Assembly: GCA_025453605.1 (NCBI GenBank)
Contig: JALOPZ010000002.1
Span: forward strand, 388,631 to 452,630
Length of the DNA: 64,000 bases
Origin: Candidatus Margulisiibacteriota bacterium
GTDB lineage: Bacteria > Margulisbacteria > WOR-1 > O2-12-FULL-45-9 > XYB2-FULL-48-7
Reading direction: 5' to 3'
Numbering within the stretch: position 1 is the first letter of the stretch; every line of letters begins with the position of its first letter. The translations under genes and the position numbers were made by a program. This document shows positions 9,265-28,309 of the stretch, piece by piece. The notes under the pieces are model-generated. The model saw only the letters and a program-made list of their open reading frames with translations. It did no database searches and had not been told where the DNA came from.

Positions 9265-9774
9265 ATGCTGCATTATTTCGGTAAATTCTGGACCAGGGTC
9301 CTGTTATGGTTGACCAGAATAACAGTTAAGATTGAGGGGGAGAAGAATATTCCGGCCGGGCCGGTCATCTACATTCAGGACCCGGCCGAAGCGCGTGACG
9401 GGATGGCAACACTCGCCTATCTCCCCGGTAAAGCGCACTTTATCTTTTCCTGCCGCCGCTTGGTCATCCCGCTCTTTGGTTTTCTGACGCTGGACCCAGC
9501 GAACCTGACCGTAATGCACGACGACGCGCTGGCGATCATCGGTAAACTGGAGAAGAAAGAAAGCGTCATTTTCTTTACTGACAAAGGAGAGATCAAGGGG
9601 GGAGTAACACTGATCGCACTGGAGACCAAACTGCCGGTCGTGCCGGTCAAAGTAAAACGTCAGGGGAAAGTAGTGACGATCAAGATCGGCAAACCGCTCC
9701 GCGCGGGGAACGCCGCCGACGACCACCGGCACCGGCAGGCGCTGAAAGCCGACCTGGAGAAGGCGCTGGCTTAA
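9265..9774 (+). CDS. PlsC/LPLAT-like acyltransferase-domain protein (catalytic HX4D not evident)
   Basis: Weak resemblance to 1-acyl-sn-glycerol-3-phosphate acyltransferases, with an N-terminal hydrophobic segment. It is convergent with the sigma-28-type island. Confidence 0.35.
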   Translation: MLHYFGKFWTRVLLWLTRITVKIEGEKNIPAGPVIYIQDPAEARDGMATLAYLPGKAHFIFSCRRLVIPLFGFLTLDPANLTVMHDDALAIIGKLEKKESVIFFTDKGEIKGGVTLIALETKLPVVPVKVKRQGKVVTIKIGKPLRAGNAADDHRHRQALKADLEKALA

Positions 9775-10085
9775 CTCGCGCCGAGGCCGCCAAGCTGGTC
9801 TTTGGCCTGCTCGATCGCGGCCAGGACCTTGTTCGCTCTGGCCTGTAAGGTGGGCGGGATCTGGCGAAGTTGTTTTTCCAGTTGGCCCAGCCGCTGCATC
9901 GTCTGTTCGCGCAGCTTGGTCTCGGCGATCTTATTCCCCTGCGAGACTTCCTCGTTGGTCTTCTGGTTGTAGTCCCGGATGATCCGCGAAACCTCCGCTC
10001 CCACGTTATCGATCTGCAGCGCCATCGCCTGGGCAGAATTGGCCAGCGAACCGAAACCGTAACTACCGTTTATATTCATGTTCAT
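9771..10085 (-). CDS. Hypothetical 104-aa coiled-coil protein (last gene of island operon 1)
   Basis: The ORF has host-like codon usage, is predicted helical (KLREQTMQRLGQLEKQLRQ) and lies 13 nt downstream of the 540-aa gene. Confidence 0.5.
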   Translation of the reverse strand: MNMNINGSYGFGSLANSAQAMALQIDNVGAEVSRIIRDYNQKTNEEVSQGNKIAETKLREQTMQRLGQLEKQLRQIPPTLQARANKVLAAIEQAKDQLGGLGAS

Positions 10086-10098
10086 CCTTCTCCTCCTT

Positions 10099-11721
10099 TT
10101 AAACCGCTTCGCGGACCAGGCGCAATTCCTGGCCGGGATTACCCAAATTGGACTCGGCGCAGAGCCGGGCGATCACGTCAGTCAGCAGCTTCTGCTTGCC
10201 GGTCAGGAACGCGACCGGCCCCCGGGCCTCGATCGCCGCCTTGACCACGGCCAGCTCTTCCTGGGCTTCCTGCAGCATCTTGGCGTTCGCCTTGTCGCGG
10301 AGCGAATCGAGCTCGGTCTGCGACAGAGCGACGCCGAGCTTTTCCAGATTCCGCAGGACCGTCTTGATCTTCTTTTCCGTGATCGACCAGGCGCTGCCGG
10401 ACAGCTTAGCATAGGTCGCCCGCTCTTCAAAGCCCTCGCGCAGCATTTCCATCAGTCGATAACGGGCCAACCCTTTCCCCTCCGTCTCGATCTGTTCTGT
10501 ATTGCTGACGCCGAGCTTGATCAGCCCGTTCTTGAGCTTGATCATCTTGAACTGGGTTTCCAGGATTGTCCGGGAGTCGCCGTTGACCGCGCGGCGCAGA
10601 TAGAGGGCGCGGAGCTTATCGGTCAGGATATCTTTTTCCTCGTCGGCCGTGTACTGGTACTGCCGCGGCCGTTCGTCGGCACTTCCCCCCTGCCCGCCGG
10701 CCGCCGCCTGGGCCCCCTGGTTATGGGCGATAACCGGCAGCAAGCCCTGGTCGAGACTGATGTCGGGGAGGCGCTGCATAAAGCCCTGGATGTCGAAACC
10801 GATCTTCTCGCCGAGCTTGAGGACCTGGTCGATCTCCTTGACGATCTTGTTTTCCGGCTGTTCGCCGACAGTCTTGCTGGTCAACCCCTCGGTCAGTTTT
10901 TCCGCCACAAAATCCTTGAGCTCCTGGGACTGGTCGCCTGTTTGGCGGTCGACCGCCCCTTTCAGGTCGCCCTCCCGGCCGCCGAAATCGTAACCGCCAA
11001 GCTTGTCGTTAAAGAAAGCAAAATCGATATACCCCTGGACCTCTTTCTTGCTGAGCAGCTCTTCGACCGATTTGCCGGGGGCGCAGAGCTGCTTGATGTA
11101 GCTCTGCTTGACCTGGCGCATGATCTCGGAGCGGACCGAATTGGCGGCGTTGAGCTTGACGCTCTGCAGTTCCTTGGGCGAAAAGCCTTTATCCTTGAGG
11201 AGCGAGGTTTCCAGCTGCTCCAGCTTTTTCTTCGCTTCGCCGCCGCCGGAGACTAAAAATTGCGAATAGGCGCCAAGATATTCCTTGACCGCCGCCCGGC
11301 TCGCCGGCCGCTGGTCAGCCTGCTGGCCGTCGGAACCGCCCTGCTGGCCGGGATCCTGCTTGGCCTTCTGGTTCTTACCGACATAATAGTCGGCCGACTT
11401 GATCTCTACCCGGTCACGGCCGCCCTCTTCCTTGTTCTCCAGGGCAAAGCCGAAATCCTCTTTCAGGCTCTGCATGATCTTGTTCGCCGGCATCTGCTGG
11501 GCCAGGCGGGCGGCGATCTGCGCCAGGATATGTTCCCCGGCTTTGCCTCCCCCTTTCTCCAGCGCTTTTTGCAGAGCGCTTTCGCTCAGAACGTTGCTCT
11601 GTTCCTGGTTCTGATCAACTTTTTTGTCGAGCGTGTTCTGGAGCAGCGTGTCCAGGCTCTGAGCCTGCGCCAGATTGGCGGCGACCGCTAACTGTTGATT
11701 ATTGGCTTGTTCGATCCCCAT
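10099..11721 (-). CDS. Hypothetical 540-aa protein (island operon 1)
   Basis: Long ORF with no recognised domain, Gln/Lys/Glu-rich with Gly-rich linkers, 2 nt downstream of the GT2-TPR gene. Confidence 0.6.
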   Translation of the reverse strand: MGIEQANNQQLAVAANLAQAQSLDTLLQNTLDKKVDQNQEQSNVLSESALQKALEKGGGKAGEHILAQIAARLAQQMPANKIMQSLKEDFGFALENKEEGGRDRVEIKSADYYVGKNQKAKQDPGQQGGSDGQQADQRPASRAAVKEYLGAYSQFLVSGGGEAKKKLEQLETSLLKDKGFSPKELQSVKLNAANSVRSEIMRQVKQSYIKQLCAPGKSVEELLSKKEVQGYIDFAFFNDKLGGYDFGGREGDLKGAVDRQTGDQSQELKDFVAEKLTEGLTSKTVGEQPENKIVKEIDQVLKLGEKIGFDIQGFMQRLPDISLDQGLLPVIAHNQGAQAAAGGQGGSADERPRQYQYTADEEKDILTDKLRALYLRRAVNGDSRTILETQFKMIKLKNGLIKLGVSNTEQIETEGKGLARYRLMEMLREGFEERATYAKLSGSAWSITEKKIKTVLRNLEKLGVALSQTELDSLRDKANAKMLQEAQEELAVVKAAIEARGPVAFLTGKQKLLTDVIARLCAESNLGNPGQELRLVREAV

Positions 11722-11723
11722 GT

Positions 11724-12767
11724 TCAGTTCCCCGCCCCGAACGGATAGATGGCGCGCGCCAGCGCCAGGTTCGCTTCGGCTTTCTCGCGTTCGCCTTTCT
11801 GCTTATAGGCCTGCCCGAGCAGGTAGTGCGGCAGCGCCTGATAGAGATACGGGTTCTCGACCGGGCTGTCCCACTTCTTGCCAGTGACCTCGGTCATGAT
11901 CTCGATCACCTGATCGGCCTTCCCCTGCATCAGGAACATGGTCGCAAAGACATCCTTGGCCGGAATATTTTCTTTATCAGCGGTATAAAGCTCCATTGCC
12001 GCCCGGCCGGCCGCCTGATATTCACCGAGCTGCAACAGATTGATCGCGATCTTCTCCTTAGCTTGCAAGACCAGGTCGGCAGCGGCTCCGAGCGTAACCA
12101 CCTGGCGGTAATGCTCGATCGCCTCCGCCTTGCGGCCGACCTCGGCCAGCGTGTTGGCCAGAAGAAAATGATAATACGGATCGGTCGGATTGGCGGCGCA
12201 GGCGGTGCCGTAGAGCTCCAGATAGCGTTCCCGTTTGGCCGCCATCTGCTCCGCCTCGCGCTGCTTACCCCAGTGATAAAGGGTGATCGGCAGCGCCGGG
12301 CCGCTGACGACCTTACCAGCCGCGTCGACCAGCTGCTCATTGATCGGCCTAACAAAGTGAATACCGAGGCCGTTCCGGAAAGCCTTGACCCGCTGGTAGC
12401 GGAACCCGTTCTGCGTCGTGCCGTAAGGGGCTTCGCACATCGTGATCTCGTAAGCCTCGGCCTTCCCGTTCTCAATGGCCGTACGCAGCTTCTTCAGTTC
12501 TGCGGTCTCCAGATACTCATCGGCGTCGATCCAGATGATCCAGTCGCCGGTCGCGTGCTTGAGCGATTCGTTGCGGGCGGCGGCAAAATCCTTGATCCAG
12601 GGGAAGTGATAGACCCTGGCGCCGTACTTTTCGGCAACCGCCACGGTCTGATCGGTCGAGCCGGTGTCGACCAGGATGAGCTCGTCGACCCCCTGGGCCA
12701 GCGCCGGAAGGACCAGCTGCAGAACAGCCGCTTCGTTCTTGACGATCATGCAGGCGGAGATTTTCAT
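11724..12767 (-). CDS. Family-2 glycosyltransferase with C-terminal TPR repeats
   Basis: MKISACMIVKNEAAVL...LVDTGSTDQT...WIIWIDADEYL is the GT2 DxD region. The C-terminal half has TPR-like repeats (EAIEHYRQVVTLGA..., LLGQAYKQKGEREKAEANLALA). Confidence 0.75.
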   Translation of the reverse strand: MKISACMIVKNEAAVLQLVLPALAQGVDELILVDTGSTDQTVAVAEKYGARVYHFPWIKDFAAARNESLKHATGDWIIWIDADEYLETAELKKLRTAIENGKAEAYEITMCEAPYGTTQNGFRYQRVKAFRNGLGIHFVRPINEQLVDAAGKVVSGPALPITLYHWGKQREAEQMAAKRERYLELYGTACAANPTDPYYHFLLANTLAEVGRKAEAIEHYRQVVTLGAAADLVLQAKEKIAINLLQLGEYQAAGRAAMELYTADKENIPAKDVFATMFLMQGKADQVIEIMTEVTGKKWDSPVENPYLYQALPHYLLGQAYKQKGEREKAEANLALARAIYPFGAGN

Positions 12768-13153
12768 CAGACCGCCACCTTGACCCGGGTCGGGTTAAGC
12801 TGTTGAGCGGCACGGCGGACCAATTTGGTATCGCCCTGTTCTTTTTCGAGCGTCTTGGTCAGCTGGGCCGCGTGCTGGGCCCGCAGGGCCTGCGCTTTGC
12901 GGATGTAGGAGTTGAGCCGTTCCAGCTTGATCAGGATCTCTTTTTTGTTGGTGCCGAAGATGCTCATCTCGTATTCAAGGTTCGATTTTTCCATGTAGAA
13001 ATCGCCGGTGATCCGGTCGATCGCTTCCAGCTTCATCTCCGAGAGCACGGCCGGCCGGTAATCGTGGCTGATGCCGAGCCGCTCCGCCTGGACCAGGAGC
13101 TGGTTCTTCAGTTCGGTAATGACTTTTTTCTGCGCTCTTTTTTTCTTGCTCAT
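12767..13153 (-). CDS. Hypothetical 128-aa protein (island operon 1)
   Basis: The start is set at the internal MSKKKRAQKK, which forms an ATGA overlap with the upstream gene's stop. The rest of the 181-aa ORF is antisense to that upstream coding sequence. Confidence 0.5.
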   Translation of the reverse strand: MSKKKRAQKKVITELKNQLLVQAERLGISHDYRPAVLSEMKLEAIDRITGDFYMEKSNLEYEMSIFGTNKKEILIKLERLNSYIRKAQALRAQHAAQLTKTLEKEQGDTKLVRRAAQQLNPTRVKVAV

Positions 13154-13680
13154 GCCAGTATCTCGTGCATCGTTTCGTCGTAAATGGTCTGCCGCATCGC
13201 CGTGTGGTTCTGGTCGATCTGGTCGGCGCGGACCTGGGAGCGGAGGTCGGAGAGCTCTTCGGCGCTGACACCGAAGTGAGCAAGCTGGTCCATGACGTTG
13301 CCGACGAGCCATTCGGAGACGCGGGCCAAAAGCCGGTTGTGCGAAAACATGTTGCCGTAGGCGCCGACGTAGGCTTTCTTGAAGCGGTTGACCAGCTCTT
13401 CGCGCATGGTGGCCGGTTTGGCGCTGTCGAGCTTCCCGCCGACAGTGGTGGTAGCTGACGCGAGCAGTGAGGTAGAATCGTCAAGCCCGGGGACGACCGC
13501 CTTAAAATCGGCGCCGCTATTATCCTCGACCCATTTCAGCTGCGATTCCCTAGTCGCGGCAGCGGATTTGTCGGTCAGCGACTGCTGTTCTTGCGGCTTT
13601 TGCTGGCCAAGCGCCAACTTCGCCTGGAGGGCGTACTCTTTGGCTCCCGAAAATCCGCTGGTAAGTGCTAGTTCGCTCAT
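13150..13680 (-). CDS. Hypothetical 176-aa protein (first gene of island operon 1)
   Basis: The ORF lies 16 nt downstream of sigma-28-like motif P1. No known domain. Confidence 0.55.
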   Translation of the reverse strand: MSELALTSGFSGAKEYALQAKLALGQQKPQEQQSLTDKSAAATRESQLKWVEDNSGADFKAVVPGLDDSTSLLASATTTVGGKLDSAKPATMREELVNRFKKAYVGAYGNMFSHNRLLARVSEWLVGNVMDQLAHFGVSAEELSDLRSQVRADQIDQNHTAMRQTIYDETMHEILA

Positions 13681-13696
13681 AGCTCTGCTCTAATAA

Positions 13697-13725
13697 TATA
13701 TCGGGCCAAGAGGGGGAAAACTTGC
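13697..13725 (-). promoter_or_regulatory. Sigma-28-like promoter motif P1: GCAAGTTTT-CCCCCTCTTGG-CCCGATATAT (gene strand)
   Basis: Reverse complement of tatatcgggccaagagggggaaaacttgc. It matches TAAAGTTT-N11-GCCGATAA in both elements and in spacing. The ATG lies 16 nt downstream. Confidence 0.65.
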
Positions 13726-13754
13726 ATCAAAAGAGCGTTTTTTTGTAGGCTAGA

Positions 13755-16031
13755 TCAGGCTTTTTTCGGCTTCTTTTCGGGAGCTTTCTGCAACTGGCGG
13801 CTCCGTTCGGCCCGTTCCGCGTTGCTCCGTTTATCGGCCGCCTTAGCGGTCGCTTCCCGTTCCTGCTGCCGTTTCTCAGCCGTTTTCTGGTCGGCGCGGC
13901 GGCTGGCCGCCTTTCTGGCTTCGTTGGCCGCCTCCACTTTTTTGTTAGCGGCGATCTCGTTGCCCTTTTCGGTAAAATCTTCCTTATCCTGATTATATTC
14001 GCGCTCGTTAGCTTTGCGCACATGCGCCCGCTCCCCGGCCAGGCGGAGCCCCATCCCGTTGCCGCTCTTGTAGAGCTGGCCGAGCAGGTGGACGACCCAG
14101 TTCTTGGTGTAGGCCGTGCCGGAGGTCGCGGTCGTCGAGTTCAGGCCAACAAACTGCATCCCGGAGTAAGCCGGGTGGTAATAATCCTCGTTCTGCTTGG
14201 TGTTCATCGTCACCCCATAGAGCGAGCTGACGATCGAACGCCAGTAAACCGTTTCGTCATTCGGGGATAACCTGGTCGCGCCTCCACCCGATCCGTTATT
14301 GGCGATCAGGATAACACTATCGGCAAATTTTCGGTCGTAACCGTAAGCGGCTGTCCGCTGCTCCGCGGCATACTTGTGAACGTTATAAACATATGCGCCG
14401 TTCACCGGGGTCCATTTAATATCTTCAGTAAAATCGGCCCCGCCCGGCCCGCCAAATTCGCCATAGCCGATCGCGACCCATTTCCCCTCTTTATCCTGGA
14501 CATAATCGTTGGTCCCGATCGTCACCGGAATCCCGCTGACCGCCAACCCGATCCCGAGGTCGCCGCCATAATTTACCTGGTTCGCCTCGCGAGCATAATA
14601 ATTTCCGAACCAGCTCTTGATAAAGGCATTAGCCTTGTCGTAGAGCTTCTTGCGGTTCAGAAAATCCTGCTTTTCCGCGTCGCTTAGCTCATCGACGTCC
14701 GTGTTGTCATATTGCTCCTGGGTCAGGCCGGAATAAGTGTACCGCCAGGTAAAAAGGTTCTGGCTGGCCAGGTCGGAATCCTGATCGACCGATGGGGTAT
14801 GATCGTTCATCCGATAATTTTCGTAGTCGCCCAGATAGTCGTTGAACTGGCGGGCCCCCATCGCCTGGGAAAAATCCCAGAACCGCATATTATCCAGCTG
14901 GGAGAGACTTAAACCAGCATTTTTGTTCCCTTCCCAGTACGCAGTCATGTGATTGGTGACGGTATGCTGGAGCTGAAAATAATTGGTAAAAAGGGAGATC
15001 TCATGGTAGTTATAATACGGCTTGTGCGCCCGAACAAAGGCATCGATATGCGTCATCATCTGTTTGTCATTACGCGTCTGATCGACCGGGCCAAAGACCT
15101 GTCGCTCCATGAACCAGATCCGGCGTGACGATTCCTTCATTGCCAGGGTGAGCATCATCTTACCGGTGGCGTCGAGGCCATTATAAGCCCCGCTCATGAC
15201 GATGTCGTAAAAGCTTTTGTTGCCAAAAGTGCTGTTCAACCAACTGGTCAACCGGGTAAAGCTCCAGCTCTCACCGGTCCAATCGCTAAGCAGCCCTAAT
15301 CCCTCGTCCCCATTGATAAAGTAGGCCTGATTGGCATCAGCCGCCCCTACCGCGTCCGGTGTCCCCGGCCGTTTGGCCCGGCTTAGGTGGTTCCACTCGC
15401 CGGCAGCGACCCGGAAATCGAGATTTTTGTACGATAACCCCATGTTCTTACCGGCCGAGACATTGGCCTGCTCATTGCTGCCGGGGCCGAACGAACCGGA
15501 TTTGTGCCGCTGGCCGGAGACCCAGTTATTGCGCCAATCGTTCAGGCCGCTACTGCCGGGATGCGACGCCTCCCAGGCTTTGAGTGAGACTTCGTTATCG
15601 ACCACGCCATTTTTGGCTAATCGTTTCATTTCTTCGTAATACCGGTACATCTTTTGGTCGTCCGCGTTGCTGCTCCCGGCCTTGCTCTTCCAATCGTCGG
15701 TGAACTGGCGCCATTCACTACCGTCGTTTTCATCGATCGTAAAGCCCCATTCGTTGAACTCTTTCAGCCAGTCATCCGTGACTCTGGTCGTTTCTTTGCC
15801 GTTCTGCAGCGCGACTCCCTCGCCTTCGTCGGCAAACGCGGTCCCTTCACAGTACATCTGCTCAAAGCCGGGGAGCCACTTCATCATCTCCTGGCCAAAA
15901 TTGGCCAGCCGGGCTAAGCCGGCATCTTTGGTGAGAAAGTTCTGCAGGTCGCGGGTCCGGGGCATAAGCTTGCGGCGCGGCGGCCGCAGCTGATATTCGT
16001 CCGTAGCGAGGAGGTTATTCCACGACGTCAT
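13755..16031 (-). CDS. Hypothetical 758-aa Trp/Tyr-rich protein with a ~110-aa Lys/Ala/Glu/Arg-rich C-terminal tail
   Basis: Long ORF. The tail ...NKKVEAANEARKAASRRADQKTAEKRQQEREATAKAADKRS...KKPKKA is histone-H1-like low complexity. Third gene of island operon 2. Confidence 0.6.
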   Translation of the reverse strand: MTSWNNLLATDEYQLRPPRRKLMPRTRDLQNFLTKDAGLARLANFGQEMMKWLPGFEQMYCEGTAFADEGEGVALQNGKETTRVTDDWLKEFNEWGFTIDENDGSEWRQFTDDWKSKAGSSNADDQKMYRYYEEMKRLAKNGVVDNEVSLKAWEASHPGSSGLNDWRNNWVSGQRHKSGSFGPGSNEQANVSAGKNMGLSYKNLDFRVAAGEWNHLSRAKRPGTPDAVGAADANQAYFINGDEGLGLLSDWTGESWSFTRLTSWLNSTFGNKSFYDIVMSGAYNGLDATGKMMLTLAMKESSRRIWFMERQVFGPVDQTRNDKQMMTHIDAFVRAHKPYYNYHEISLFTNYFQLQHTVTNHMTAYWEGNKNAGLSLSQLDNMRFWDFSQAMGARQFNDYLGDYENYRMNDHTPSVDQDSDLASQNLFTWRYTYSGLTQEQYDNTDVDELSDAEKQDFLNRKKLYDKANAFIKSWFGNYYAREANQVNYGGDLGIGLAVSGIPVTIGTNDYVQDKEGKWVAIGYGEFGGPGGADFTEDIKWTPVNGAYVYNVHKYAAEQRTAAYGYDRKFADSVILIANNGSGGGATRLSPNDETVYWRSIVSSLYGVTMNTKQNEDYYHPAYSGMQFVGLNSTTATSGTAYTKNWVVHLLGQLYKSGNGMGLRLAGERAHVRKANEREYNQDKEDFTEKGNEIAANKKVEAANEARKAASRRADQKTAEKRQQEREATAKAADKRSNAERAERSRQLQKAPEKKPKKA

Positions 16032-16049
16032 GCCTGCTCCCTAGCGGGG

Positions 16050-16376
16050 TTACCCGCCAAACAGGGAGAAGAGCTTATTGGAGAGATCGAGATCGTTCTT
16101 CTTGATAGCGAGGAGGCGATCGATCACGGAGAGCGTATCGGAGTTCCACTTGTCGGCCAGATAGGTGGCGGCCGCCGAGTCTTTTCTCACGATGTGGCCC
16201 TGGATCTCGACCGTTTCGGTCGTGTCGTCCGACATCGCTTCAACATAGGTCTTCATGTCCTGGTTGAACTTCTGCCAGAAATCGACGATCTTATCGGTAA
16301 CGCTGCTGGCGTCCTTTTCGTAGGAAGCCCCCTGTAGCTGGGATAATATTGCGTAACCGCTCTGAATTTCACTCAT
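16050..16376 (-). CDS. Hypothetical 108-aa acidic protein
   Basis: ORF between the 111-aa and 758-aa genes. It could be chaperone-like (small, acidic), but this is speculative. Confidence 0.45.
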   Translation of the reverse strand: MSEIQSGYAILSQLQGASYEKDASSVTDKIVDFWQKFNQDMKTYVEAMSDDTTETVEIQGHIVRKDSAAATYLADKWNSDTLSVIDRLLAIKKNDLDLSNKLFSLFGG

Positions 16377-16463
16377 CTTTTTCCATCTCCTTTTCCGTCC
16401 GCTTCAACCAGGGTTGCCTGATTTAAGAGGACGGGGCCCCCGGAGGGGCCACCGTCAACATTC

Positions 16464-16799
16464 TTACAGCTTCTGGGACAGCTTCGCATTGATCTGCTTG
16501 TCGAGGTTCGAGGCAGAGGCCAAGCCGCTCGCCTGGTTCTGCTGCCGCATGCTAAATTGTTCATTGACGTACAGGAAAGCCGAACCGTCAACCTTGACCG
16601 CTTTCCCGGCGCTGGTGACCACGCAACCGGCCGCATTCGCTTCGGCAGTCGTGTGACCTTTTCCCGCGTTGTAATCCGAAGCCTGGATGTCAGCACCAGA
16701 GTTCGCGTCAACGCCTTCGAAAGCATTGATGACCTGGTTTTGCCACGCATCGGTCTTTTGGTCCATCTTTATAAAAGAATCTGTCATATCTACGCTCAT
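16464..16799 (-). CDS. Hypothetical 111-aa protein (first gene of island operon 2)
   Basis: Preceded by the RBS AAAAGGGGGTGA and a ~95-nt leader from motif P2. Confidence 0.5.
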   Translation of the reverse strand: MSVDMTDSFIKMDQKTDAWQNQVINAFEGVDANSGADIQASDYNAGKGHTTAEANAAGCVVTSAGKAVKVDGSAFLYVNEQFSMRQQNQASGLASASNLDKQINAKLSQKL

Positions 16800-16869
16800 G
16801 TTCTTTCACCCCCTTTTAGTTTGGCCCGCCTGTCGAGAGCGAGCCTGATCTCCGATCCCCTTCCAATTG

Positions 16870-16898
16870 CTTATCGGGTCGAGCCCCGCAAAACTTGC
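16870..16898 (-). promoter_or_regulatory. Sigma-28-like promoter motif P2: GCAAGTTTT-GCGGGGCTCGA-CCCGATAAGC
   Basis: Reverse complement of cttatcgggtcgagccccgcaaaacttgc. It is the closest match to the E. coli FliA -10 GCCGATAA. Confidence 0.65.
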
Positions 16899-16901
16899 AT
16901 C

Positions 16902-17165: not shown

Positions 17166-17194
17166 ATTATCGGGGGGAGAGGCGGAAAACTTGC
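17166..17194 (-). promoter_or_regulatory. Sigma-28-like promoter motif P3: GCAAGTTTT-CCGCCTCTCCC-CCCGATAATA
   Basis: Reverse complement of ttattatcggggggagaggcggaaaacttgc. The ATG lies 9 nt downstream (leaderless-type). Confidence 0.6.
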
Positions 17195-17219
17195 ATTGCG
17201 GAGGTGACAGGGAAAACAC

Positions 17220-17720: not shown

Positions 17721-20700
17721 GCTGAATAGTTCCTTCCGACCCCGGCCAGAACAGCTTCTTCCTGCTGGGCCGCCAGATACCGGTCGTAGGCCGACGCCGG
17801 CTTGGCGAACCGGGGCTGCTTGGTTTCTTTCTTGACGCTGGCCTCGGTCCGGGCCGCGGCAACCTCGATCTTCTTCGCCGGCTTCTCTTCCTTGACCGGG
17901 AGCTCGCCGACACTTGCCAGGATCATCCCGGCCCGCTCAACCTCAAGATTATACAACCGCGGCGGCTGAGGCGCCAGCGGGACAACCGGGACCGGCTGCG
18001 GTTGGACCGCTGCCGTTTTGACCGGCCGGGCCGCCGCCAGCTTCTTCAAGATCTCTTCGACCGTCGCCTTATCAACCCCCTTGAGCAGAGCGAGACAGGT
18101 ATTCTCGTCCTTATTTCTCAGGTTGAGATCGGCGATCAGCTGATCGGCTTTGGAGACATAGATATCCTGCTCTTCTTCGACCCGGTGGGCATTGGCTGCC
18201 TTGGCGTCGGCCGCCTTTTGCGCGGTTGCTTCGTCGATCTTCCGGCCGGCATCCAGAGCCGCCTGTCCGGCCGCCACGATCTGCTCCCCTGCCTGCTGCG
18301 CGGCCGGTGTCGCAACGCTGGCCAGAGTCGTTGTCTGGGTCGTCGATCCGCTGCCGCTTTCGACCGCTTCACCCAGGTTCTTGAGCATGGTCTGCAGGGC
18401 GGCGATCTCTCTGTTCAGCTCCTTGATCTCGCCGCGGTTCCCTTTGATCTCCCCCATCAGTTCGTCGATCTTCCCTTTGGCCGCCTCGGTCCCGGCCAGG
18501 GCCGCTTTATGAGCTAGCTTGGCGTTCCGATATGAATCATTAATAGCTATTTTGATATTCTCTTTCTTCGTCAGGTCTGCCTGCTTAGTTTTCCGCTCTG
18601 CCGCTGTCAGCTTACCGCTCTCCAACTCCTGCCGGAGCGCGGCGATCTCCTTCTTATTCTGAACATACTGTTGCTCCAGGCTGGTCAGGTTATTGGCTGT
18701 TTTGACGACCGTCAGCGCGGCTGTCCCCTTGGCTGTCGCCAGCTCGTTGCGCTGGGCGACCAGAGCGGTGATCTCCGCCTGTTTCTGGGCGATCTCCGCC
18801 TGTTTCTGGGCGATCAGCGTCTTGATCTCCGTTTTGGTCAGCTGCTCGGGGTTACCGGCTGCCGCCTGGTTCGGAGCGGTTTTGAACTGGCCTTTGAGGC
18901 CGGATACTTCCTGTTCCAGCTTGACCTGAGCCGCTTTCCCCGATTCGATCTTGGCGTCAAAAGATTTGGTCAGGGCGTCAAGCGAATCGGCCAGGACTTT
19001 CTGGGAGCGGGCCGCCTGTTCCTGCCGCTGGAACTGGTGGGTCACGACCTGCTGGGCCGCCGCCGGATTGCCGGCCGCCGCCGCACCCGCTTCACCGGCC
19101 CGGGTCTGATCGGACGCAGTTGCCTTCTCCAGTTCGTTAACGGTCGCGATATCCGGGTTAAGGAAACTCTGGATAGTATAAACGGAGCTCTCCGGCATCA
19201 TCTTAAAGAACGAAAGGGCGGCATCGGCCTGCATTGATTTAAAACCGAGAACGTCCATCCCCTCTTCGCTCTGCGCCATCATATACTGGTGGGTCTCGAT
19301 GTCAGACTCCATACTATCGAGCGCGCCGGCAAAACCGGCCCCCTCTTCTTCACGCTCTTCAGTCGCGCAGGCGTTATTCTCTTCCTTCTTCTCTTTCCCG
19401 TCCGTTTTCTTCCCGCTCAGATCATTATGGACCGTATTCGATTTTTCATCATCGCCGGTGAAGCAGAGCGGGATCAGAGCGTTCAAGGAGCGGCCGACCA
19501 GATTGATGGTTGAGGAGAGTTTACCAACATTGCGCATGCTCCGGATCAGTTCACCCTTCTGGGAATTCAGCTTTTCTTTATCGACGTTCGATTGCGCCGG
19601 ATAGCTCTCCGCGATCTGCTTATCGATCTGCGCGATCTCTTTCTTCGTCCCGGCCCTGGCGATCGAGCACGAGAGCGAGATGGTCGAGACCGCGGCGCCA
19701 ACGAACGCCTGGGTCATCTGAACATATGCTTCGCGCTTCTGGTTCTCGCGCTGAACGATCGACTCCAGCGTCCCCTTGAGCGCCTCCAGGATCGAGAGGG
19801 CCGCCGAGCGGTTCGCTTCGACGATATCGGTCAGACTGGTGGAGGCCTGGAACTTGCCCATCGCCGCCTTGATCTCGCGCATGATCTGCATCGCCATGGC
19901 GATCGCCAGCTTGGCGTTGTATAAGCGCTCCATCCGGGTGTTGACCAACGCGGTATCGCCGCTGACGGACGAAAGACCGTAGTCGAGCGAGTTGATCAGA
20001 TCGGTCGACATCTGGCGCATGATCTCGTCTTCGCGCGCGTCCAGCTCGTCGGTCCAGTCGCCGGTTTTTTCGCTCTTCTTTTTGCCGTTCATTTCGTCGA
20101 CCGTGTCGTTGACATTGTAGTTCTTGAGCGCGCCGATATCGGCATTGGTCGTGTTGTTCGCTTCGATCACGCTGTACATGTTGGCGGCCAGGTTGCCGAG
20201 GGCCGGCAGGACCTCAGCCAACGCCATCCCGAACGAGCCGGCGGAGGTGGTCGCCATCAGGGACATGCTGGCGGCCGAGCAGGCGATATTGATCCCGCCG
20301 GTAATGCCGGCGTTGATCAGCTGTTTCTCGGCGTCACGCCCCTGGTTCATTACCGCCGCGGTCGTCCGCAGGTCGGCCGCCAGGTTGCTGACGATCCGGA
20401 GAGCGGCCGAGAAGCTGGCCTGATTGACCGATTTGGTCAGCTCCTCGGCGGCGGTCCCCGGCGCGACGCCGGTCAGCTCGCGCTGGACCGCGGCCCGGAC
20501 CTTGGCGCCGAGCGTCAAGGCATCGGAGAGGACCTGCTTCAGGGTGAAGATCCGCTGGATCTGCTTGATCGTTTTGGCGAGCTGGCTGTTGTTAAGCCCG
20601 TGGTAGCCGTCGCCGGTCCCGATCAGACCATTGGCCAGGAAGTCGAGCATCGCCTGCGCTTCCATCCGATCCAGTTTCCCCTCGATCGAATCGTCGTTGG

Positions 20701-23677: not shown

Positions 23678-23684
23678 TACAAAT

Positions 23685-23714
23685 ATATATCGGTCCGAAG
23701 GGGGAAAAACTTGC
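23685..23714 (-). promoter_or_regulatory. Sigma-28-like promoter motif P4: GCAAGTTTT-TCCCCCTTCGG-ACCGATATATA
   Basis: Reverse complement of tatatatcggtccgaagggggaaaaacttgc. The ATG lies 8 nt downstream of the CCGATATA element. Confidence 0.6.
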
Positions 23715-23731
23715 GTAATTTGGGGACTTTT

Positions 23732-24964
23732 TTAGCTGGCGGATGGGACAGCAACCTGCCCCTTATTTTGCCTAATACCGTCTAAAATCTGACCGATCCG
23801 GCCGACATCCGTTTGACCTAATTGTTTAAGTGTTACCCTGATCTGCCAAAAAGCCTTGCTGTAGCCTGGCTCTTTGACATCGACCCGGGCGAGTTTCGCC
23901 TCAATTTCCGGGTTTTTAAGCTCCCGAAGCTTGCCGAGCGCCTTATCGTTCCACTCTGATTCTTCGATCGCCTTGCGCTCCGGCAGCTTACCCTCGATCA
24001 TGTACTGCCTGAGAATGGTCGCCGCGAACCGGTCGCGGGAGAGAGCGTCTGTCAACTCCATATCCAGCCCGTCGCGGGACATTTCGCCCTGAAGCTGCAA
24101 AGCCAGTTTGTAAAAGACCATCAGCGCCTGCTGTTGTTCGTGCTTTGAACCGTTGAGCAGCTCAGCCAGTTGGCTGGCCACGTCGTCGGCCCGGTATTCG
24201 CCGTCCTGAGGCGGGAAGTAAGCCTCCATCAGCGCCCGATGCCGCGAGGTCATCAGCTTGAGTTCTTCATGATTGTTTTCCGTCAATCCTCTGGCCACCG
24301 CCAGCAGGTTTTTGGCGCCGATCAATGTCCGGATCCGGGAGGCGGACAAAAAAGTCCGCGCGTCCTGACCGGTCCCACGCAAATAGGTTTTCCCCTGGCG
24401 CAAATTCTCGACCAGTTCACCGGTTGAGACTTTGTCCTTATCACCCATCAGACTGTGCCACTGCTGTTCGCCCACTTTCTGGCCGATCATCTCGGCAAAA
24501 TCCTCTCTGGTGATCCCCCCGCGCAGCTCCGCGGCGGTAAGGACCCTCATAAATTTATCCCGCGGCAGGCTGGCGACGTCGCCGCTCAGAAAATAGACAG
24601 TTTCAAAATAAGCATCCACCCCATCGTTAGCCGGCCGTCCGTTGGGTACAGCGGTCTGGCGCCCCCCCGCGACAGCCACCTTCCCACCCCCGGCCGCTGG
24701 GGCATCCCCTTTGATCTCCGTATCGGCCAGCAACCCGTCATCCCCGGCCACCGCTTTCCACTCCTTTTCGGAGAGAGAGATCTTGACCGTGTCGGAGCAA
24801 TAATCCTGCAGCTCCTTCAGGCTGATCTGTTTATCGCCATCCTGATCGAGCAGCTTGATCTCCCCATCGGCCCCCTGTTTGCTCGAGGAGGCGCTAAGCT
24901 TATTCTTACCGACATATGACGCCACCTGCCGGGCGCTCAATAAGACTTTACCGGTTTCGTTCAT
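23732..24964 (-). CDS. Hypothetical 410-aa protein with an N-terminal EF-hand-like Ca-binding loop
   Basis: DQDGDKQISLKELQDY fits the canonical 12-residue EF-hand loop D-x-D-x-D-x-x-I-x-x-x-E. The rest is unrecognised. Last gene of island operon 5. Confidence 0.55.
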   Translation of the reverse strand: MNETGKVLLSARQVASYVGKNKLSASSSKQGADGEIKLLDQDGDKQISLKELQDYCSDTVKISLSEKEWKAVAGDDGLLADTEIKGDAPAAGGGKVAVAGGRQTAVPNGRPANDGVDAYFETVYFLSGDVASLPRDKFMRVLTAAELRGGITREDFAEMIGQKVGEQQWHSLMGDKDKVSTGELVENLRQGKTYLRGTGQDARTFLSASRIRTLIGAKNLLAVARGLTENNHEELKLMTSRHRALMEAYFPPQDGEYRADDVASQLAELLNGSKHEQQQALMVFYKLALQLQGEMSRDGLDMELTDALSRDRFAATILRQYMIEGKLPERKAIEESEWNDKALGKLRELKNPEIEAKLARVDVKEPGYSKAFWQIRVTLKQLGQTDVGRIGQILDGIRQNKGQVAVPSAS

Positions 24965-25191
24965 TTTTTATCCCTCTGCTCGCGCAGCGCCGTCTTCAGG
25001 TCGGTCAGCTGGGAGCGCATCTTCTGCTGGACCTGCTCCAGATGCGCCTGGGCCGCTTTGGTCCGCCGCCGGGCAGCCGCCAGGGCGACATAGCCGGTCA
25101 GCACCCGCCCGATCGCCGAAACGATCAGCAAGAACGAGAGCGCCAGCGAAAAGCTGACCAGATTAAAGTTTTGCGCCAAATAATCGAACAT
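24961..25191 (-). CDS. Hypothetical 76-aa single-pass membrane protein with coiled-coil tail
   Basis: LVSFSLALSFLLIVSAIGRVLTGYVALAAA is a predicted TM helix, followed by a charged helix. Confidence 0.45.
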   Translation of the reverse strand: MFDYLAQNFNLVSFSLALSFLLIVSAIGRVLTGYVALAAARRRTKAAQAHLEQVQQKMRSQLTDLKTALREQRDKK

Positions 25192-25201
25192 TATTCTCCC
25201 C

Positions 25202-25489
25202 TTATTTCAAAAGCGAGATCGTCGCCGTATTGAACCACTGACGGACTTTCCCCTGAATAAGATCCGGCATAGTCGAACCTTGGGCGGCCGCGCCCACCTT
25301 GGGCTGGCCGTTCCGGTCAGTCCGCTGGACCGCGTTCTGCGCCGCTTTGGTATCGCCCTGGACCGGCGAATGAAGCATATCCAAACACCGTTCGGCCGCC
25401 TCATCGGTCGCCCGCCGGCGCTCGCCGAGATTTTGCCGGCCCGGGCACTTGTTCGAGTCGGCGAGCTGATTGGTCATTTGGACGCCCAT
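25202..25489 (-). CDS. Hypothetical 95-aa protein
   Basis: ORF in island operon 5. No domain recognised. Confidence 0.4.
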   Translation of the reverse strand: MGVQMTNQLADSNKCPGRQNLGERRRATDEAAERCLDMLHSPVQGDTKAAQNAVQRTDRNGQPKVGAAAQGSTMPDLIQGKVRQWFNTATISLLK

Positions 25490-25662
25490 TACAGCAACTC
25501 CTTACGGGCGGCGGCGTAGTCGCCCTTGTTGCCCGACGGTATTTCCTCGGGCGTGATGCCGGACCGGTTCTCCAGAGCGAGCAGATCGGTAACCTCTTTA
25601 CAGAGGGTATCGATCTCCGCTCCGAGCTTATTCAAATTGATGTTTTCGACCGTCGATTCCAT
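25489..25662 (-). CDS. Hypothetical 57-aa protein (first gene of island operon 5)
   Basis: The start is set at the ATG preceded by GGAGGG (9-nt spacing) rather than the upstream GTG. It lies 25 nt downstream of motif P5. Confidence 0.4.
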   Translation of the reverse strand: MESTVENINLNKLGAEIDTLCKEVTDLLALENRSGITPEEIPSGNKGDYAAARKELL

Positions 25663-25684
25663 ATCTGATAGTCCCTCCACTGGT

Positions 25685-25713
25685 TATATCGGGCTTACCC
25701 CCAAAAAACTTGC
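25685..25713 (-). promoter_or_regulatory. Sigma-28-like promoter motif P5: GCAAGTTTT-TTGGGGGTAAG-CCCGATATAA
   Basis: Reverse complement of ttatatcgggcttacccccaaaaaacttgc. Confidence 0.6.
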
Positions 25714-25720
25714 ATCGGGA

Positions 25721-26440
25721 TCACGGTTTTTTTACGGCCTCAACCAGGGGGGCAAAAAAGGCGCGGATCCGGTCAACTGTCCCAGCCTCCCCGGGGTCCC
25801 AGCTCTTCCCCAGGACCAGGTCAACCTCGCCCAGGAGAAAGATATCCCGGTTAGGCTTGTTCCCCTCGCCGACCGTCCTGATCGTCAGCGGACGGACGGT
25901 CGCCCCGGCTTTAGCCGCCAGACTAAGCAATTTCTCCAGTTTTTCGCGGGAATGACGGCTTTCTCCGTAGAAGATCTCATAGTAAATAACGACCGGTTTT
26001 TCGGACTGCAGCCGCTGATAGATCGCCCCGGCAAATAGCCAGGCAGCCGGCCGGTCATCATCCCGACGCGGATAGGGGATATAACCGAGGGTCCGCAAGA
26101 CCCGGCCGACGATCCAGAGCTTGAGGAGCGAATCGGCTACCACCATCGGGAGCTCGGACGAGAGGGCGGCTACCAGGTAGAGAGGAGCGTTGCGGCACGG
26201 TCGGTTGACCAGCAGAATGGTCCGGCCGGCGGCCAGCACCGCCTGACCGGGGGCGACGATCCGGACCCCGCCCAACCGGAGAAAAAAGGCGACGATCACC
26301 CGGGCGATCTGACGGTATAACACTTTTCCCGCCGGGCCCCATGGGGCGATCAGCCAGGAAAACAGGTAAAAGAAAAGAAAGAGCAGCCTAATCCCGAGCC
26401 AGTAATAAAGGTTGGCGATCAGGCGCCGCAGCCATCTCAT
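25721..26440 (-). CDS. PlsC/LPLAT-like acyltransferase-domain membrane protein (degenerate; no canonical HX4D)
   Basis: N-terminal TM region, then ...RTILLVNRPCRNAPLYLVAAL..., an acyltransferase-like fold with Arg in place of the catalytic His. Confidence 0.4.
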   Translation of the reverse strand: MRWLRRLIANLYYWLGIRLLFLFFYLFSWLIAPWGPAGKVLYRQIARVIVAFFLRLGGVRIVAPGQAVLAAGRTILLVNRPCRNAPLYLVAALSSELPMVVADSLLKLWIVGRVLRTLGYIPYPRRDDDRPAAWLFAGAIYQRLQSEKPVVIYYEIFYGESRHSREKLEKLLSLAAKAGATVRPLTIRTVGEGNKPNRDIFLLGEVDLVLGKSWDPGEAGTVDRIRAFFAPLVEAVKKP

Positions 26441-26646
26441 GGCTTGTTATCGTCGTCAACCTGGCTGAAAAAATCGATCTTATAAACCTCGGCCGTTTTC
26501 TGTTCCAGGGCGCTCTTTTCTTTTTCCAGCCGGTCGATGGTCTCACGCAGGCTCGCGGCGCTGGCCGCGGCGGCGACCGTATTCCGCACGACCAAACTGA
26601 TCAGCACGATCAGGACCACCAGCACGATCAGCCAGATGATCATCAT
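26437..26646 (-). CDS. 69-aa single-pass membrane protein with coiled-coil (FtsB/FtsL-like architecture)
   Basis: MMIIWLIVLVVLIVLISLVV followed by ...LRETIDRLEKEKSALEQKTAEVYK. Confidence 0.4.
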   Translation of the reverse strand: MMIIWLIVLVVLIVLISLVVRNTVAAAASAASLRETIDRLEKEKSALEQKTAEVYKIDFFSQVDDDNKP

Positions 26647-27323
26647 TTCCCCTCCTCCAACACCCGAAATAAATTCGCCAAAGTGCTCTTTTCGGCTGGA
26701 CCGGCGGGCCGCCAGGGGGAACCGATCTTAAGCCGGACCCGGCCGGGGTTGATCAAATACTCCGACGTGACCGGCGGCTGCTCGATCAGGAGCGGGATGA
26801 TCGCCGCTCCGCACAGGCGCGCGGTCCTGACCAGCGCGTCGTCAAGTTCGGCCGGTTTGCTGACCAGCCGCCGCAAGGCGGGCGGAAAGACCAACACCTG
26901 CTCTCCCCGCTGCAGCGCCTCCCGCAGGGATAAGAGAAAGGCGACGTCGGTCCCACCCAATTCGTAGATCAGGCAACCGGCGCTTTTTAAAACCCGGCCG
27001 AGGAGCGGAACCCGTAAAATATTGGAATCGGCGACCAGGCGCAAACGCTCCGGCCGGGCGGCGACCAGGTAAAGCGGTTCCAGTAAACCGGGATGCTCGG
27101 CTACCCAAAGAGAGCCGCCGCGCATTTTTCCCTGCGGCGCGCCGACCACTTCTACCCTGATAAAAGTGCAAGCCAGCAGAAGCTTCATCATTTGTCGGAA
27201 TATAGCGTAATACAGCGGACGAGCCAGGTCGCCCAGCGGCAACAGCAGCCAGGCCAGAACAGCCAGGATCAGCAAACCGATCAGGCAGAGGAGAAAGAAA
27301 TACGCCGAGAAAAGCCATGCCAT
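26643..27323 (-). CDS. PlsC/LPLAT-like acyltransferase-domain membrane protein (HX4E variant: EHPGLLE)
   Basis: N-terminal TM helix, then WVAEHPGLLEPLYLVAARP...VFPPALRR, an acyltransferase-like protein paralogous to 25721..26440 and 9265..9774. Confidence 0.4.
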   Translation of the reverse strand: MAWLFSAYFFLLCLIGLLILAVLAWLLLPLGDLARPLYYAIFRQMMKLLLACTFIRVEVVGAPQGKMRGGSLWVAEHPGLLEPLYLVAARPERLRLVADSNILRVPLLGRVLKSAGCLIYELGGTDVAFLLSLREALQRGEQVLVFPPALRRLVSKPAELDDALVRTARLCGAAIIPLLIEQPPVTSEYLINPGRVRLKIGSPWRPAGPAEKSTLANLFRVLEEGK

Positions 27324-27365
27324 GATGGGGGGATTATAGCAAATCGACCGGCCGGTGACTATCGT

Positions 27366-28271
27366 TTAGATCTCGTTCAAACCGGCCCGTTTGGCACTGG
27401 TTTCCGGTTCCGGCAGGATCGAGACCGACCAGTAGTGGACCGGGCTGGTCCGGTTCAAATAGGCGTAATCGAGGTTGATCCCGCCGACGCTGATCCCGAG
27501 TCCGGTCGTCGTGCAATCGGTGGAACGGCCGGTCCGCAGCGCTAAACCCTTGACCGGCGTCCATTCACAGCCGAGCTCCTCGCCTTCGACCGTCCAGGTG
27601 ACATTGCCGTCAAACAGCCGGCCGGCCGCGCCGGCCAAAACCGCGTACTGCTTCCGGTCGACGGTCGAGAGATTGGCAATGGCGCTCTTGTCATTCCCCA
27701 TAAAGTTCTGGACCGCCAGACCGAGCGACAGGTCGCCGTTCGGCTTAAAGATCGTCGCCAGGTCGAGGTCGACGCTGGAGCCGCCATCCTGGGCGAGACC
27801 GTTGGCGATGCCGATCTTCCGGCTCGATAATTTCACGTTCATCCCGAGCTGCAGGGAACCGAGGCTGGCGGGGACCCGCATCGCCTGGTTCAGGTCGCGG
27901 GCCATCGTGATATAAAGTGTCTGGGTCGTGTATTTGACCGGGCTGTCGCCGTCATAGGTCGTGACCGGGACAGTCCCCTCGATCGGATCGCTGGAGCCGA
28001 TGTAACCGATCCCGAGATTACCGAACGGGGTCGTTTCCACTCCGCCGATCATCGTATATTCCCGACCCTCCTGAAGCCTGGTGGCGGCCATGACCGATTC
28101 CCGCTTCAACCCGGCAATACCGGCCGGATTAATGAAGATCGCGTTGACGTCATCGGACATCGCGACCCAGGCGCCCCCCATCCCCATCGGCCGGGCCCCG
28201 AGGTTTTCCTGAGCCAGCGCCGGAACCATTAACATAACTAATAGGAGCGCACAGAGAGTTGTTTTGTTCAT
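27366..28271 (-). CDS. Outer-membrane beta-barrel protein, PorV/FadL/UPF0164-like
   Basis: Signal peptide MNKTTLCALLLVMLMVPALA, then MGMGGAWVAMSDDVNAIFINPAGIAGL, which is characteristic of this OMP superfamily. Preceded by motif P6. Confidence 0.6.
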   Translation of the reverse strand: MNKTTLCALLLVMLMVPALAQENLGARPMGMGGAWVAMSDDVNAIFINPAGIAGLKRESVMAATRLQEGREYTMIGGVETTPFGNLGIGYIGSSDPIEGTVPVTTYDGDSPVKYTTQTLYITMARDLNQAMRVPASLGSLQLGMNVKLSSRKIGIANGLAQDGGSSVDLDLATIFKPNGDLSLGLAVQNFMGNDKSAIANLSTVDRKQYAVLAGAAGRLFDGNVTWTVEGEELGCEWTPVKGLALRTGRSTDCTTTGLGISVGGINLDYAYLNRTSPVHYWSVSILPEPETSAKRAGLNEI

Positions 28272-28280
28272 TTCACTAAC

Positions 28281-28309
28281 TCTATCGGGCCGAAGGGAGG
28301 AAAACTTGC
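28281..28309 (-). promoter_or_regulatory. Sigma-28-like promoter motif P6: GCAAGTTTT-CCTCCCTTCGG-CCCGATAGAG
   Basis: Reverse complement of tctatcgggccgaagggaggaaaacttgc. The ATG lies 9 nt downstream. Confidence 0.6.

Follow-up and report, generated by a model that had tools for sequence, protein, structure and literature searches.

A probable alternative-sigma promoter class joins a conserved gene cluster to scattered loci in Margulisbacteria and Saganbacteria

Introduction

Sigma factors of the sigma-28 family (FliA/SigD/WhiG) read very stringent promoters and switch on discrete late gene sets, which need not be flagellar, as in the sigma-28-type regulon of Streptomyces WhiG. In Pseudomonas syringae and Erwinia, one extracytoplasmic function (ECF) sigma factor, HrpL, switches on a secretion apparatus together with unrelated effectors through the hrp box (GGAACC-N15/16-CCACNNA). 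The sigma-28 consensus is TAAAGTTT-n11-GCCGATAA (PMC2859248), and a non-flagellar sigma-28 regulon in Chlamydia comprises hctB and tsp (PMC12282069). Here we analyze 64,000 nucleotides (nt) of a Candidatus Margulisiibacteriota bacterium (contig JALOPZ010000002.1, positions 388,631 to 452,630; hereafter the window), in which an original prediction made from the sequence letters had marked an island of minus-strand operons behind a shared, sigma-28-like motif. The motif is very probably the promoter class of one alternative sigma factor and is confined to the Margulisbacteria/Saganbacteria lineage. Within what would be a much larger regulon, the window carries the conserved core cluster, encoding proteins of 84, 111, 108, 758, 176 and 128 amino acids (aa), a GT2-TPR glycosyltransferase and proteins of 540 and 104 aa; this core is preceded by a giant gene with a 103-aa partner and by two further units. 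Taken as a whole, this reading, an alternative-sigma promoter class in front of the core of a larger regulon, is one that we hold to be probable on balance.

Results

Six strong copies of the motif in the window

Exact matches to GCAAGTTTT-N12-CCGATA occur six times in the window, on the minus strand only (Table 1). The chance expectation for this pattern is 0.10 even with two mismatches allowed, and none of 100 shuffles reached six. The octamer GCAAGTTT is found six times against 1.5 expected, each time inside a motif site. When a weight matrix built from 26 sites (described below) was run over both strands, the six sites scored 32.8–44.7 bits and every other position of the window stayed below 8 bits, with a shuffle maximum of 11.4 bits. 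Sites in the window are all-or-none: there is a strong copy or nothing. All six are intergenic and lie directly 5' of a minus-strand open reading frame (ORF), the first start codon following 10–72 nt past CGATA. A simple terminator scan of the window did not delimit unit ends cleanly; transcription units were defined by promoters and gene spacing.

These results bear out the original prediction in its essentials, namely six near-identical minus-strand motifs that each stand close in front of a transcription unit on the minus strand and that are absent from the housekeeping genes of the window; its coordinates were off by only 2–3 nt at the 3' end. Its spelling of the motif survives in the optional-C form, which is equivalent to N12-CCGATA and gives the six exact matches, whereas the literal GCAAGTTTT-N11-CCGATA has no match even with two mismatches. 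As to the search for further copies that it had proposed, the 26-site matrix found none elsewhere in the window, and a pattern scan of metagenomes found at least 120 more loci (below). A housekeeping promoter of the same window looks quite different. Upstream of groES (~1931-2000, minus), we found a sigma-70-type promoter, TTGACA-N17-TACCAT, with a perfect CIRCE operator (TTAGCACTC-N9-GAGTGCTAA); housekeeping promoters are thus canonical, and the island motif belongs to a different class.

The motif and the cluster are conserved in seven relatives

Seven related loci from Margulisbacteria/Saganbacteria (L003, L006 and L129–L133) were compared with the window, making 8 genomes in total. Gene order is the same in all seven, running (giant, ~99 aa), ~80, ~110, ~106, ~700, ~172, ~128, GT2-TPR and ~535, so that the synteny the original prediction had asked about is indeed kept. 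The neighbours FabG-ACP-KAS-YcaO, ROK and HisF/H recur in several of the seven. The motif stands at orthologous intergenic positions in every relative, including Saganbacteria and genomes of 44–47% GC. Altogether, the 8 genomes hold 26 sites. Every one of them lies on the coding strand, and the other strand has no site in 187 kb. Their consensus reads A-Y-GCAAGTTTT-N13-CGATA; about six A/T come next, and TGGAAG/GGAGG often follows these. The spacer is pyrimidine-rich and not conserved in sequence, the stretch after CGATA is A/T-rich, and an A-tract precedes the -35 box at 15 of the 26 sites against a background of 19%. Both boxes and their spacing are retained while the spacer sequence drifts, across genomes of 44–60% GC and orthologues down to 23–40% identity. 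Promoter 6 is the best conserved site, being present in 7/7 relatives that cover the position, and at Promoter 3 the stretch from the -10 box to the ATG is identical in L003.

The proteins behind these sites fall into two classes. When the window is compared with L003, identity is 64–81% for housekeeping proteins; a conserved island class (the 108-, 103-, 111-, 128- and 540-aa proteins and the GT2-TPR enzyme) is 70–82% identical, whereas a fast-evolving class reaches 49% (176 aa), 42% (giant), 40% (758 aa) and 23% (410 aa).

Two observations in the relatives concern single genes. L129 carries a weaker copy of the motif (21447-21478, plus strand; 21.8 bits) with the -10 box CGATG, in front of a gene for a small lipoprotein-like product (MKKLIAFALFAVITFALC...); this gene is absent at the equivalent window position. 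Genes in L130 (21030-21623) and L236 (2-472, minus) encode a Pro/Ser/Thr-rich N-terminus with a faint annotation as Flg_hook (FliK C-terminal domain), and both are truncated before that domain. The L130 gene lies ~9 kb downstream of the cluster, and the L236 homologue starts 9 nt after a motif. Nothing else points to a flagellar or type III connection.

Comparison of the boxes with sigma-28 promoters

Measured against GCCGATAA, the -10 box agrees with that of sigma-28 promoters: CGA is present at 26/26 sites, CGAT at 24/26 and CGATA at 22/26, and the preceding base is C or A at 24/26. The -35 box has an invariant AAGTTT and matches TAAAGTTT at six of eight positions, with GC instead of TA at positions 1–2; an alternative register, CAAGTTTT, matches five of eight. 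When AAGTTT is aligned, the spacer measures 12 nt, as against 11 nt in the alternative register, and its length is fixed in 26/26 sites; sigma-28 may tolerate both 11 and 12 nt. From the sigma-28 match drawn by the original prediction, the AAGTTT and CGATA boxes stand; the spacing in the AAGTTT register exceeds its 11 nt by one base, and the first two -35 positions differ.

The sites share with FliA/SigD/WhiG promoters a bipartite form, a long -35 box with AAGTTT, a CGATA core in the -10 box, a nearly equal box distance and all-or-none stringency. They differ in a -35 box that begins (A)YGC, in the added base of spacing and in the many units that are predicted to be leaderless or to begin with a Shine-Dalgarno sequence; compared with a classical sigma-28 regulon, the gene set is also much larger and includes no recognizable flagellar, chemotaxis or sporulation gene. 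The Chlamydia late regulon is alike in having sigma-28-type promoters without flagellar genes, developmental or late genes and a Lys/Ala-rich histone-like region. It has two targets, against six units in the window and dozens of families in relatives, and its products are unrelated in sequence. We give the cognate sigma factor an even chance of belonging to the sigma-28 family, and it may have co-evolved with the divergent -35 box. Some Margulisbacteria carry flagellin and FlgV, and FlgV is co-conserved with sigma-28 (PMC7018530, PMC11607428). In our literature search, flagella, sigma factors and the motif were not described for these lineages beyond passing lists.

The same motif at scattered metagenomic loci

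A pattern with ~18 informative positions was scanned against JGI metagenomes and matched at least 120 loci. Most contigs among those listed stem from samples of sediment, groundwater and lakes, White Oak River among them. The listed matches are largely genuine, as judged from four features. T(+8) and A(+11), which lie outside the search pattern, accompany 67 of the 124 listed hits against ~9 expected, following the trend CGATA-W6-N-TGGAAG; two or more motif copies occur in 36 of the 120 listed loci; one listed locus overlaps L132; and another, L189, lies on a contig as long as that of L129 (708,195 bp) without overlapping L129, which suggests separate sites in one genome. Related genomes use the same promoter elsewhere, for dozens of unrelated families. 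Downstream ORFs of the listed loci fall into at least 81 families, 14 ORFs matching cluster families and 88 not. A bundled Pfam scan of 81 motif-driven families from these loci found most to be domain-less and the rest to carry scattered EF-hand, GGDEF, SLH, LysM, Ig-like and C39-like domains; some few loci are probably chance matches. Domains of flagellar, chemotaxis or pilus proteins were not found. Among 94 first ORFs of the listed loci, 39 encode at most 140 aa and 15 at least 800 aa, and 5 have a signal- or transmembrane-like N-terminus. The dedicated island regulon of the original prediction accordingly keeps its alternative-sigma-type promoter class and loses its self-contained island, since the same promoter serves many loci and at least 81 families.

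A motif scan of GTDB genomes gave single chance matches, with no Margulisbacteria among the matches listed. Recurrent hits in Achromobacter and Saccharibacteria lie inside coding sequence (chemoreceptor N-terminus, DnaK) and were rejected, as were the matches L117 and L054, which are single and probably coding.

Transcription units, leaders and products

The six units and their genes are collected in Table 1. Start genes come in two forms. Those for the barrel, the giant and the 84-aa protein have an ATG 10–11 nt past CGATA and no Shine-Dalgarno sequence, and internal genes of the units carry one of GGAGG type. The 111-aa family instead has a leader of 45–72 nt with a strong Shine-Dalgarno sequence at its end (window 16800-16871; L003 9159-9229; L129 4865-4942), which suits an abundant product. 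Five aligned relatives have AAGGAGGTGA in common in this leader, where the window has AAGGGGGTGA. In the window, L003 and L129, the leader also contains a conserved CCGC-CTCGACA-GCGG, which might fold into a small hairpin.

Table 1. Motif sites, transcription units (TU) and genes of the island, in window coordinates; bits are scores of the 26-site matrix
Feature	Coordinates	Strand	Remarks
Promoter 1 (ACGCAAGTTTT-N13-CGATA)	28283..28311	-	exact match 28283-28309; drives TU1; leaderless-like, as ATG lies 11 nt past CGATA without Shine-Dalgarno sequence; 34.6 bits
TU1 (4 genes)	25721..28271	-	behind Promoter 1
PorV/PorQ-like outer-membrane barrel, 301 aa	27366-28271	-	TU1; signal peptide
PlsC-type acyltransferase, 226 aa	26643-27323	-	TU1; above Pfam cut-off
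Single-pass membrane protein, 69 aa	26437-26646	-	TU1
Degenerate acyltransferase-like protein, 239 aa	25721-26440	-	TU1; below cut-off
Promoter 2	25687..25715	-	exact match 25687-25713; GGAGGG at +9 to +14 after CGATA, hence Shine-Dalgarno sequence at extreme 5' end of predicted mRNA; ATG at +25; 35.6 bits
TU2 (4 genes)	23732..25662	-	behind Promoter 2
57-aa protein	25489-25662	-	TU2
95-aa protein	25202-25489	-	TU2
76-aa membrane protein	24961-25191	-	TU2
410-aa fast-evolving protein	23732-24964	-	TU2; one EF-hand-like loop (below cut-off)
Promoter 3	23688..23716	-	exact match 23688-23714; ATG of giant gene 10 nt past CGATA, leaderless-like; 41.1 bits
TU3 (giant and 103 aa)	17409..23677	-	behind Promoter 3
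1986-aa giant	17717-23677	-	TU3; variable coiled-coil C-terminal third
Conserved 103-aa protein	17409-17720	-	TU3; start overlaps stop of giant
Promoter 4	17168..17196	-	exact match 17168-17194; ATG 11 nt past CGATA, leaderless-like; 42.8 bits
TU4: 84-aa Gly-rich protein	16902..17156	-	behind Promoter 4
Promoter 5	16872..16900	-	exact match 16872-16898; 72-nt leader, then strong Shine-Dalgarno sequence; 32.8 bits
TU5 (3 genes)	13755..16799	-	behind Promoter 5
111-aa protein	16464-16799	-	TU5; candidate abundant subunit
108-aa protein	16050-16376	-	TU5
758-aa protein	13755-16031	-	TU5; ~650-residue globular domain and 90-residue Lys/Ala/Glu-rich helix
Promoter 6	13699..13727	-	exact match 13699-13725; ATG 18 nt past CGATA; 44.7 bits
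TU6 (5 genes)	9771..13680	-	behind Promoter 6
176-aa protein	13150-13680	-	TU6
Basic coiled-coil protein, 128 aa	12767-13153	-	TU6
GT2-TPR glycosyltransferase, 347 aa	11724-12767	-	TU6; best NCBIfam match SunS-type, below cut-off
All-helical 540-aa protein	10099-11721	-	TU6; phylum-restricted family
104-aa protein	9771-10085	-	TU6

Few of these proteins resemble anything described. The GT2-TPR glycosyltransferase is recognized by Pfam (GT2, 5e-23) and by the NCBIfam SunS-type peptide glycosyltransferase model (2.9e-19, 69 bits against a cut-off of 350). Like SunS/ThuS GT2 peptide and GT2-TPR flagellin glycosyltransferases, it carries a GT2 domain at the N-terminus and TPR repeats after it, an architecture typical of protein or peptide rather than lipid-carrier glycosylation; unlike them, it falls far below the equivalog cut-off, and no glycocin-like precursor or flagellin lies nearby. 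The 301-aa barrel matches PorV/PorQ NF033709 over residues 24-190 (E 7.1e-13, 48.8 bits against a cut-off of 90). Among the gene descriptions of the original prediction, the GT2-TPR enzyme is solid, the giant and the Lys/Ala/Glu-rich tail of the 758-aa protein are present, and one acyltransferase passes the Pfam cut-off; others, namely the second acyltransferase, the PorV/PorQ-like barrel, the single EF-hand loop and the FtsL-like membrane protein, are weak or sub-threshold. Its verdict that the driven genes are overwhelmingly unrecognizable agrees with our searches, in which the remaining island proteins fell into no Pfam, NCBIfam, PHROG or PADLOC family. Core proteins have neither signal peptides nor transmembrane segments, the products are Cys-poor, and the giant has three hydrophobic hairpins (residues ~423-444, 704-760 and 929-968).

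The 758-aa protein has a confident predicted model with no fold match in the PDB, and conserved His, Glu and Asp positions in its family (H176, H215, E300, D322, H343, H356, D566 and H619) hint at a possible enzyme or metal site. A word-indexed search gave it two relatives and an exhaustive search 64 representatives; the word-indexed profile search of the family returned only 3 known proteins and missed the orthologues in L129–L133, the Lys/Ala/Glu tail having probably saturated the 8000-candidate word prefilter. Pfam found no domain in remote relatives of the family, and the 758-aa query found no related loci in GTDB genomes. Six cluster families, searched as profiles against the sequences of the PDB, gave only designed helical proteins or noise, with no natural relative. 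The 540-aa family has ~50 members of 525–581 aa, bar one partial entry of 457 aa; where a source is named, it is almost always Margulisbacteria/Margulisiibacteriota or Saganbacteria.

Genomic setting of the island

The window sits within a 527,632-bp JGI metagenome contig, and ~10 kb was added on each side so that ~84 kb was examined. Flanking genes are ordinary chromosomal ones (SecA, RF2, PdxJ, IspF, RpiB, FabG/ACP/KAS, GroES/EL, NusA/IF2, glycolysis and a polysaccharide cluster), and the two 10-kb extensions hold housekeeping genes only. The original prediction had held that the island is like its host in codon usage and GC, lacks mobility genes and is not a recent insertion. In agreement, island GC and GC3 match the flanks, no integrase or transposase was found among the window genes, and synteny conserved across the phylum marks the island as ancient and chromosomal. 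tRNA and Rfam scans of the window found none.

Next to the cluster, at 4209-9774, lies a block with a Glyco_trans_1_2/DUF3880 glycosyltransferase, YcaO, two KAS-like genes, ACP, FabG and a divergent 169-aa gene whose L003 counterpart carries an acyltransferase domain. This block adjoins the cluster in L003 and L129 as well, and it may be functionally linked, as a lipid or modified-peptide pathway. Polysaccharide genes occupy 35218-42865 (minus), including a pyruvyl transferase (PS_pyruv_trans, 39876-40967) and DUF5693 (40964-42865). Pyruvyl-transferase-type polysaccharide chemistry anchors SLH-domain proteins, and one motif-driven metagenomic protein carries SLH domains. An Hcp gene (T6SS_HCP, 5.6e-16; 49595-50125, minus) is followed by that of a 185-aa protein, the pair spanning 49068-50125; no other type VI secretion genes were noticed in the window or flanks.

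Discussion

In the working that we propose, the long -35 box and the CGATA -10 box would be recognized by RNA polymerase holoenzyme containing a sigma factor dedicated to this class, which is most likely of group 3 and similar to sigma-28/FliA. Transcription would begin ~7–9 nt after CGATA. The resulting mRNAs would be leaderless, where the ATG lies at +10/+11 (barrel, giant and 84-aa genes), or would begin at a Shine-Dalgarno sequence (GGAAG/GGAGG at +9 to +13). Control of a single sigma factor would then turn on the whole gene set jointly, because each unit carries a near-identical strong site and the rest of the 64 kb not even a weak one. The barrel and acyltransferase unit (TU1) would modify the outer membrane, and the GT2-TPR enzyme possibly glycosylates products.

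Which protein reads the motif can be argued from its boxes and its neighbours. Recognition by an ECF (group 4) sigma factor, in the manner of HrpL in Pseudomonas syringae, is in our estimate unlikely but deserves serious attention, with some probability left for a sigma factor of another kind. ECF promoters are of the (T)GnAAC-N16/17-CGT type with a T-tract after the -35 core, which the GCAAG-N17-CGATA geometry resembles in that 17 nt separate AAG from CGA; the spacer is also one base beyond the sigma-28 consensus, and dozens of unrelated, fast-evolving, signal-less proteins with giants among them look more effector-like than a classical sigma-28 regulon. The boxes themselves tell otherwise: the -10 is CGATA, the exact sigma-28 core, and not CGTC/CGTA, the long -35 (9–11 conserved bases) has AAGTTT, and an invariant G replaces the critical C of AAC. 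ECF sigma factors are commonly encoded with an anti-sigma factor and autoregulated, and no sigma/anti-sigma pair adjoins the cluster in the 8 genomes, so that among the marks of an ECF promoter (AAC at -35, CGT at -10, sigma/anti-sigma neighbours) none is present and only the geometry fits; an unusual ECF group is still conceivable. That the motif is instead the operator of a DNA-binding regulator, with genes read from overlapping sigma-70 promoters, is improbable. The TATAT-like A/T stretch after CGATA could serve as a -10 hexamer, and conservation by itself does not separate an operator from a promoter; yet no TTGACA-like box lies 16–18 nt upstream of that stretch, where AAGTTT sits, and a generic sigma-70 scan found no site at the six motif positions. 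The asymmetric motif also keeps to the coding strand at every site, and motif-to-start distances down to 10 nt leave no room for a separate downstream promoter.

Gene content bears on two further accounts. A sigma-28-like motif would be explained if the cluster were a late-flagellar (class 3) set, diverged beyond easy recognition, of filament, cap and hook-associated proteins, chaperones, FlgM and a flagellin glycosyltransferase, and gene sizes and order do loosely recall the flaG-fliD-fliS-fliT and flgM/flgK operons. In some bacteria flagellins are glycosylated by GT2-TPR enzymes, and such an enzyme is present here among products that are Cys-poor and lack Sec signals; the faint Flg_hook (FliK) protein lies near the cluster in L130, with its homologue behind a motif in L236. 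Even at permissive thresholds, however, no flagellar Pfam or NCBIfam family was found in 19 island proteins, profile searches against solved structures gave no flagellin, FlgM, FliS or FliD, and the 758-aa and 540-aa models are unlike any flagellar fold. With the 81 motif-driven metagenomic families likewise free of flagellar and chemotaxis domains, the original statement that no such gene is recognizable holds for both sets, and we regard a flagellar identity as very improbable. The many small ORFs of no recognizable family, a giant with tape-measure-like composition and weak ZorA-like matches on the 104-aa protein could recall a prophage remnant, a mobile element or an anti-phage defence island with its own promoter type. 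Ten island proteins had no PHROG match, no relative turned up in IMG/VR viral contigs and no viral fold matched; PADLOC yielded coiled-coil noise only; and integrase, transposase and tRNA genes are missing from an island with the GC and GC3 of its host, in a chromosomal neighbourhood that recurs across the phylum. These tests effectively refute this last account, which we consider extremely improbable.

Several points weigh against the alternative-sigma reading that we prefer. In the AAGTTT register, the spacer exceeds that of the E. coli consensus by one base, and GC stands at the start of the -35 box where TA is expected; in the E. coli aer promoter, a T-to-C change at the first -35 position strongly lowers activity (PMC2859248). 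Genes for a sigma factor, flagella or chemotaxis did not turn up in the ~84 kb that the window makes up with its ~20 kb of extra flank, nor did a sigma gene within 10 kb of the cluster in the seven relatives. Start sites are predicted from sequence, being compatible with the +10/+11 start codons and with GGAAG/GGAGG at +9 to +13. The metagenomic loci are tied to the lineage by only the 14 cluster-family ORFs, the L132 overlap and the apparent L129 contig, and that tie is unverified. Functional ideas draw on composition and context, and PDB profile and fold searches gave no fold or sequence relative for any core protein.

With that said, the make-up of the gene set points outward from the cell. 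We think it plausible, though somewhat short of an even chance, that the cell exports these products or places them at its envelope, as parts of a surface structure or as secretion substrates with their helpers, possibly glycosylated, because most lack Sec signals, conserved ~100-aa proteins stand beside fast-diverging large proteins and polytopic giants, and a protein-type glycosyltransferase, a barrel and acyltransferases are nearby. More tentatively still, the dedicated sigma regulon marked by AYGCAAGTTTT-N13-CGATA might encode an undescribed cell-surface or protein-export system, with a core of small helpers or subunits, a polytopic giant, a protein glycosyltransferase and a new-fold 758-aa protein, together with scattered, diversifying, signal-less proteins resembling cargo or effectors. 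The logic would be that of HrpL and the hrp box, where one promoter class likewise precedes a conserved helper cluster and many scattered, unrelated, fast-evolving, signal-less proteins, and the motif reveals the repertoire. The two systems do not share their box sequences, and we saw neither type III nor other secretion machinery. The present lineage, unlike the hosts of HrpL, is free-living or uncharacterized (sediment and groundwater metagenomes) and is not a known pathogen.

Margulisbacteria and Saganbacteria are uncultivated sister lineages of Cyanobacteria whose cell biology is essentially unknown, and a near-invariant, information-rich promoter makes one of their coordinated programmes accessible by computation alone. 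The feature is more general than the original prediction supposed, marking the core of a probable lineage-wide alternative-sigma regulon; alternative-sigma regulons as such are already known, and the content of this one is unusually novel. Nearly all its families are without known relatives and at least one confident structure is without a solved-fold match, so that the regulon is rich in protein biology that is new. Should the sigma factor be FliA-like, this would be the largest non-flagellar sigma-28 regulon known to us, and if the products are exported or assembled at the surface, they would constitute a new envelope or secretion system.

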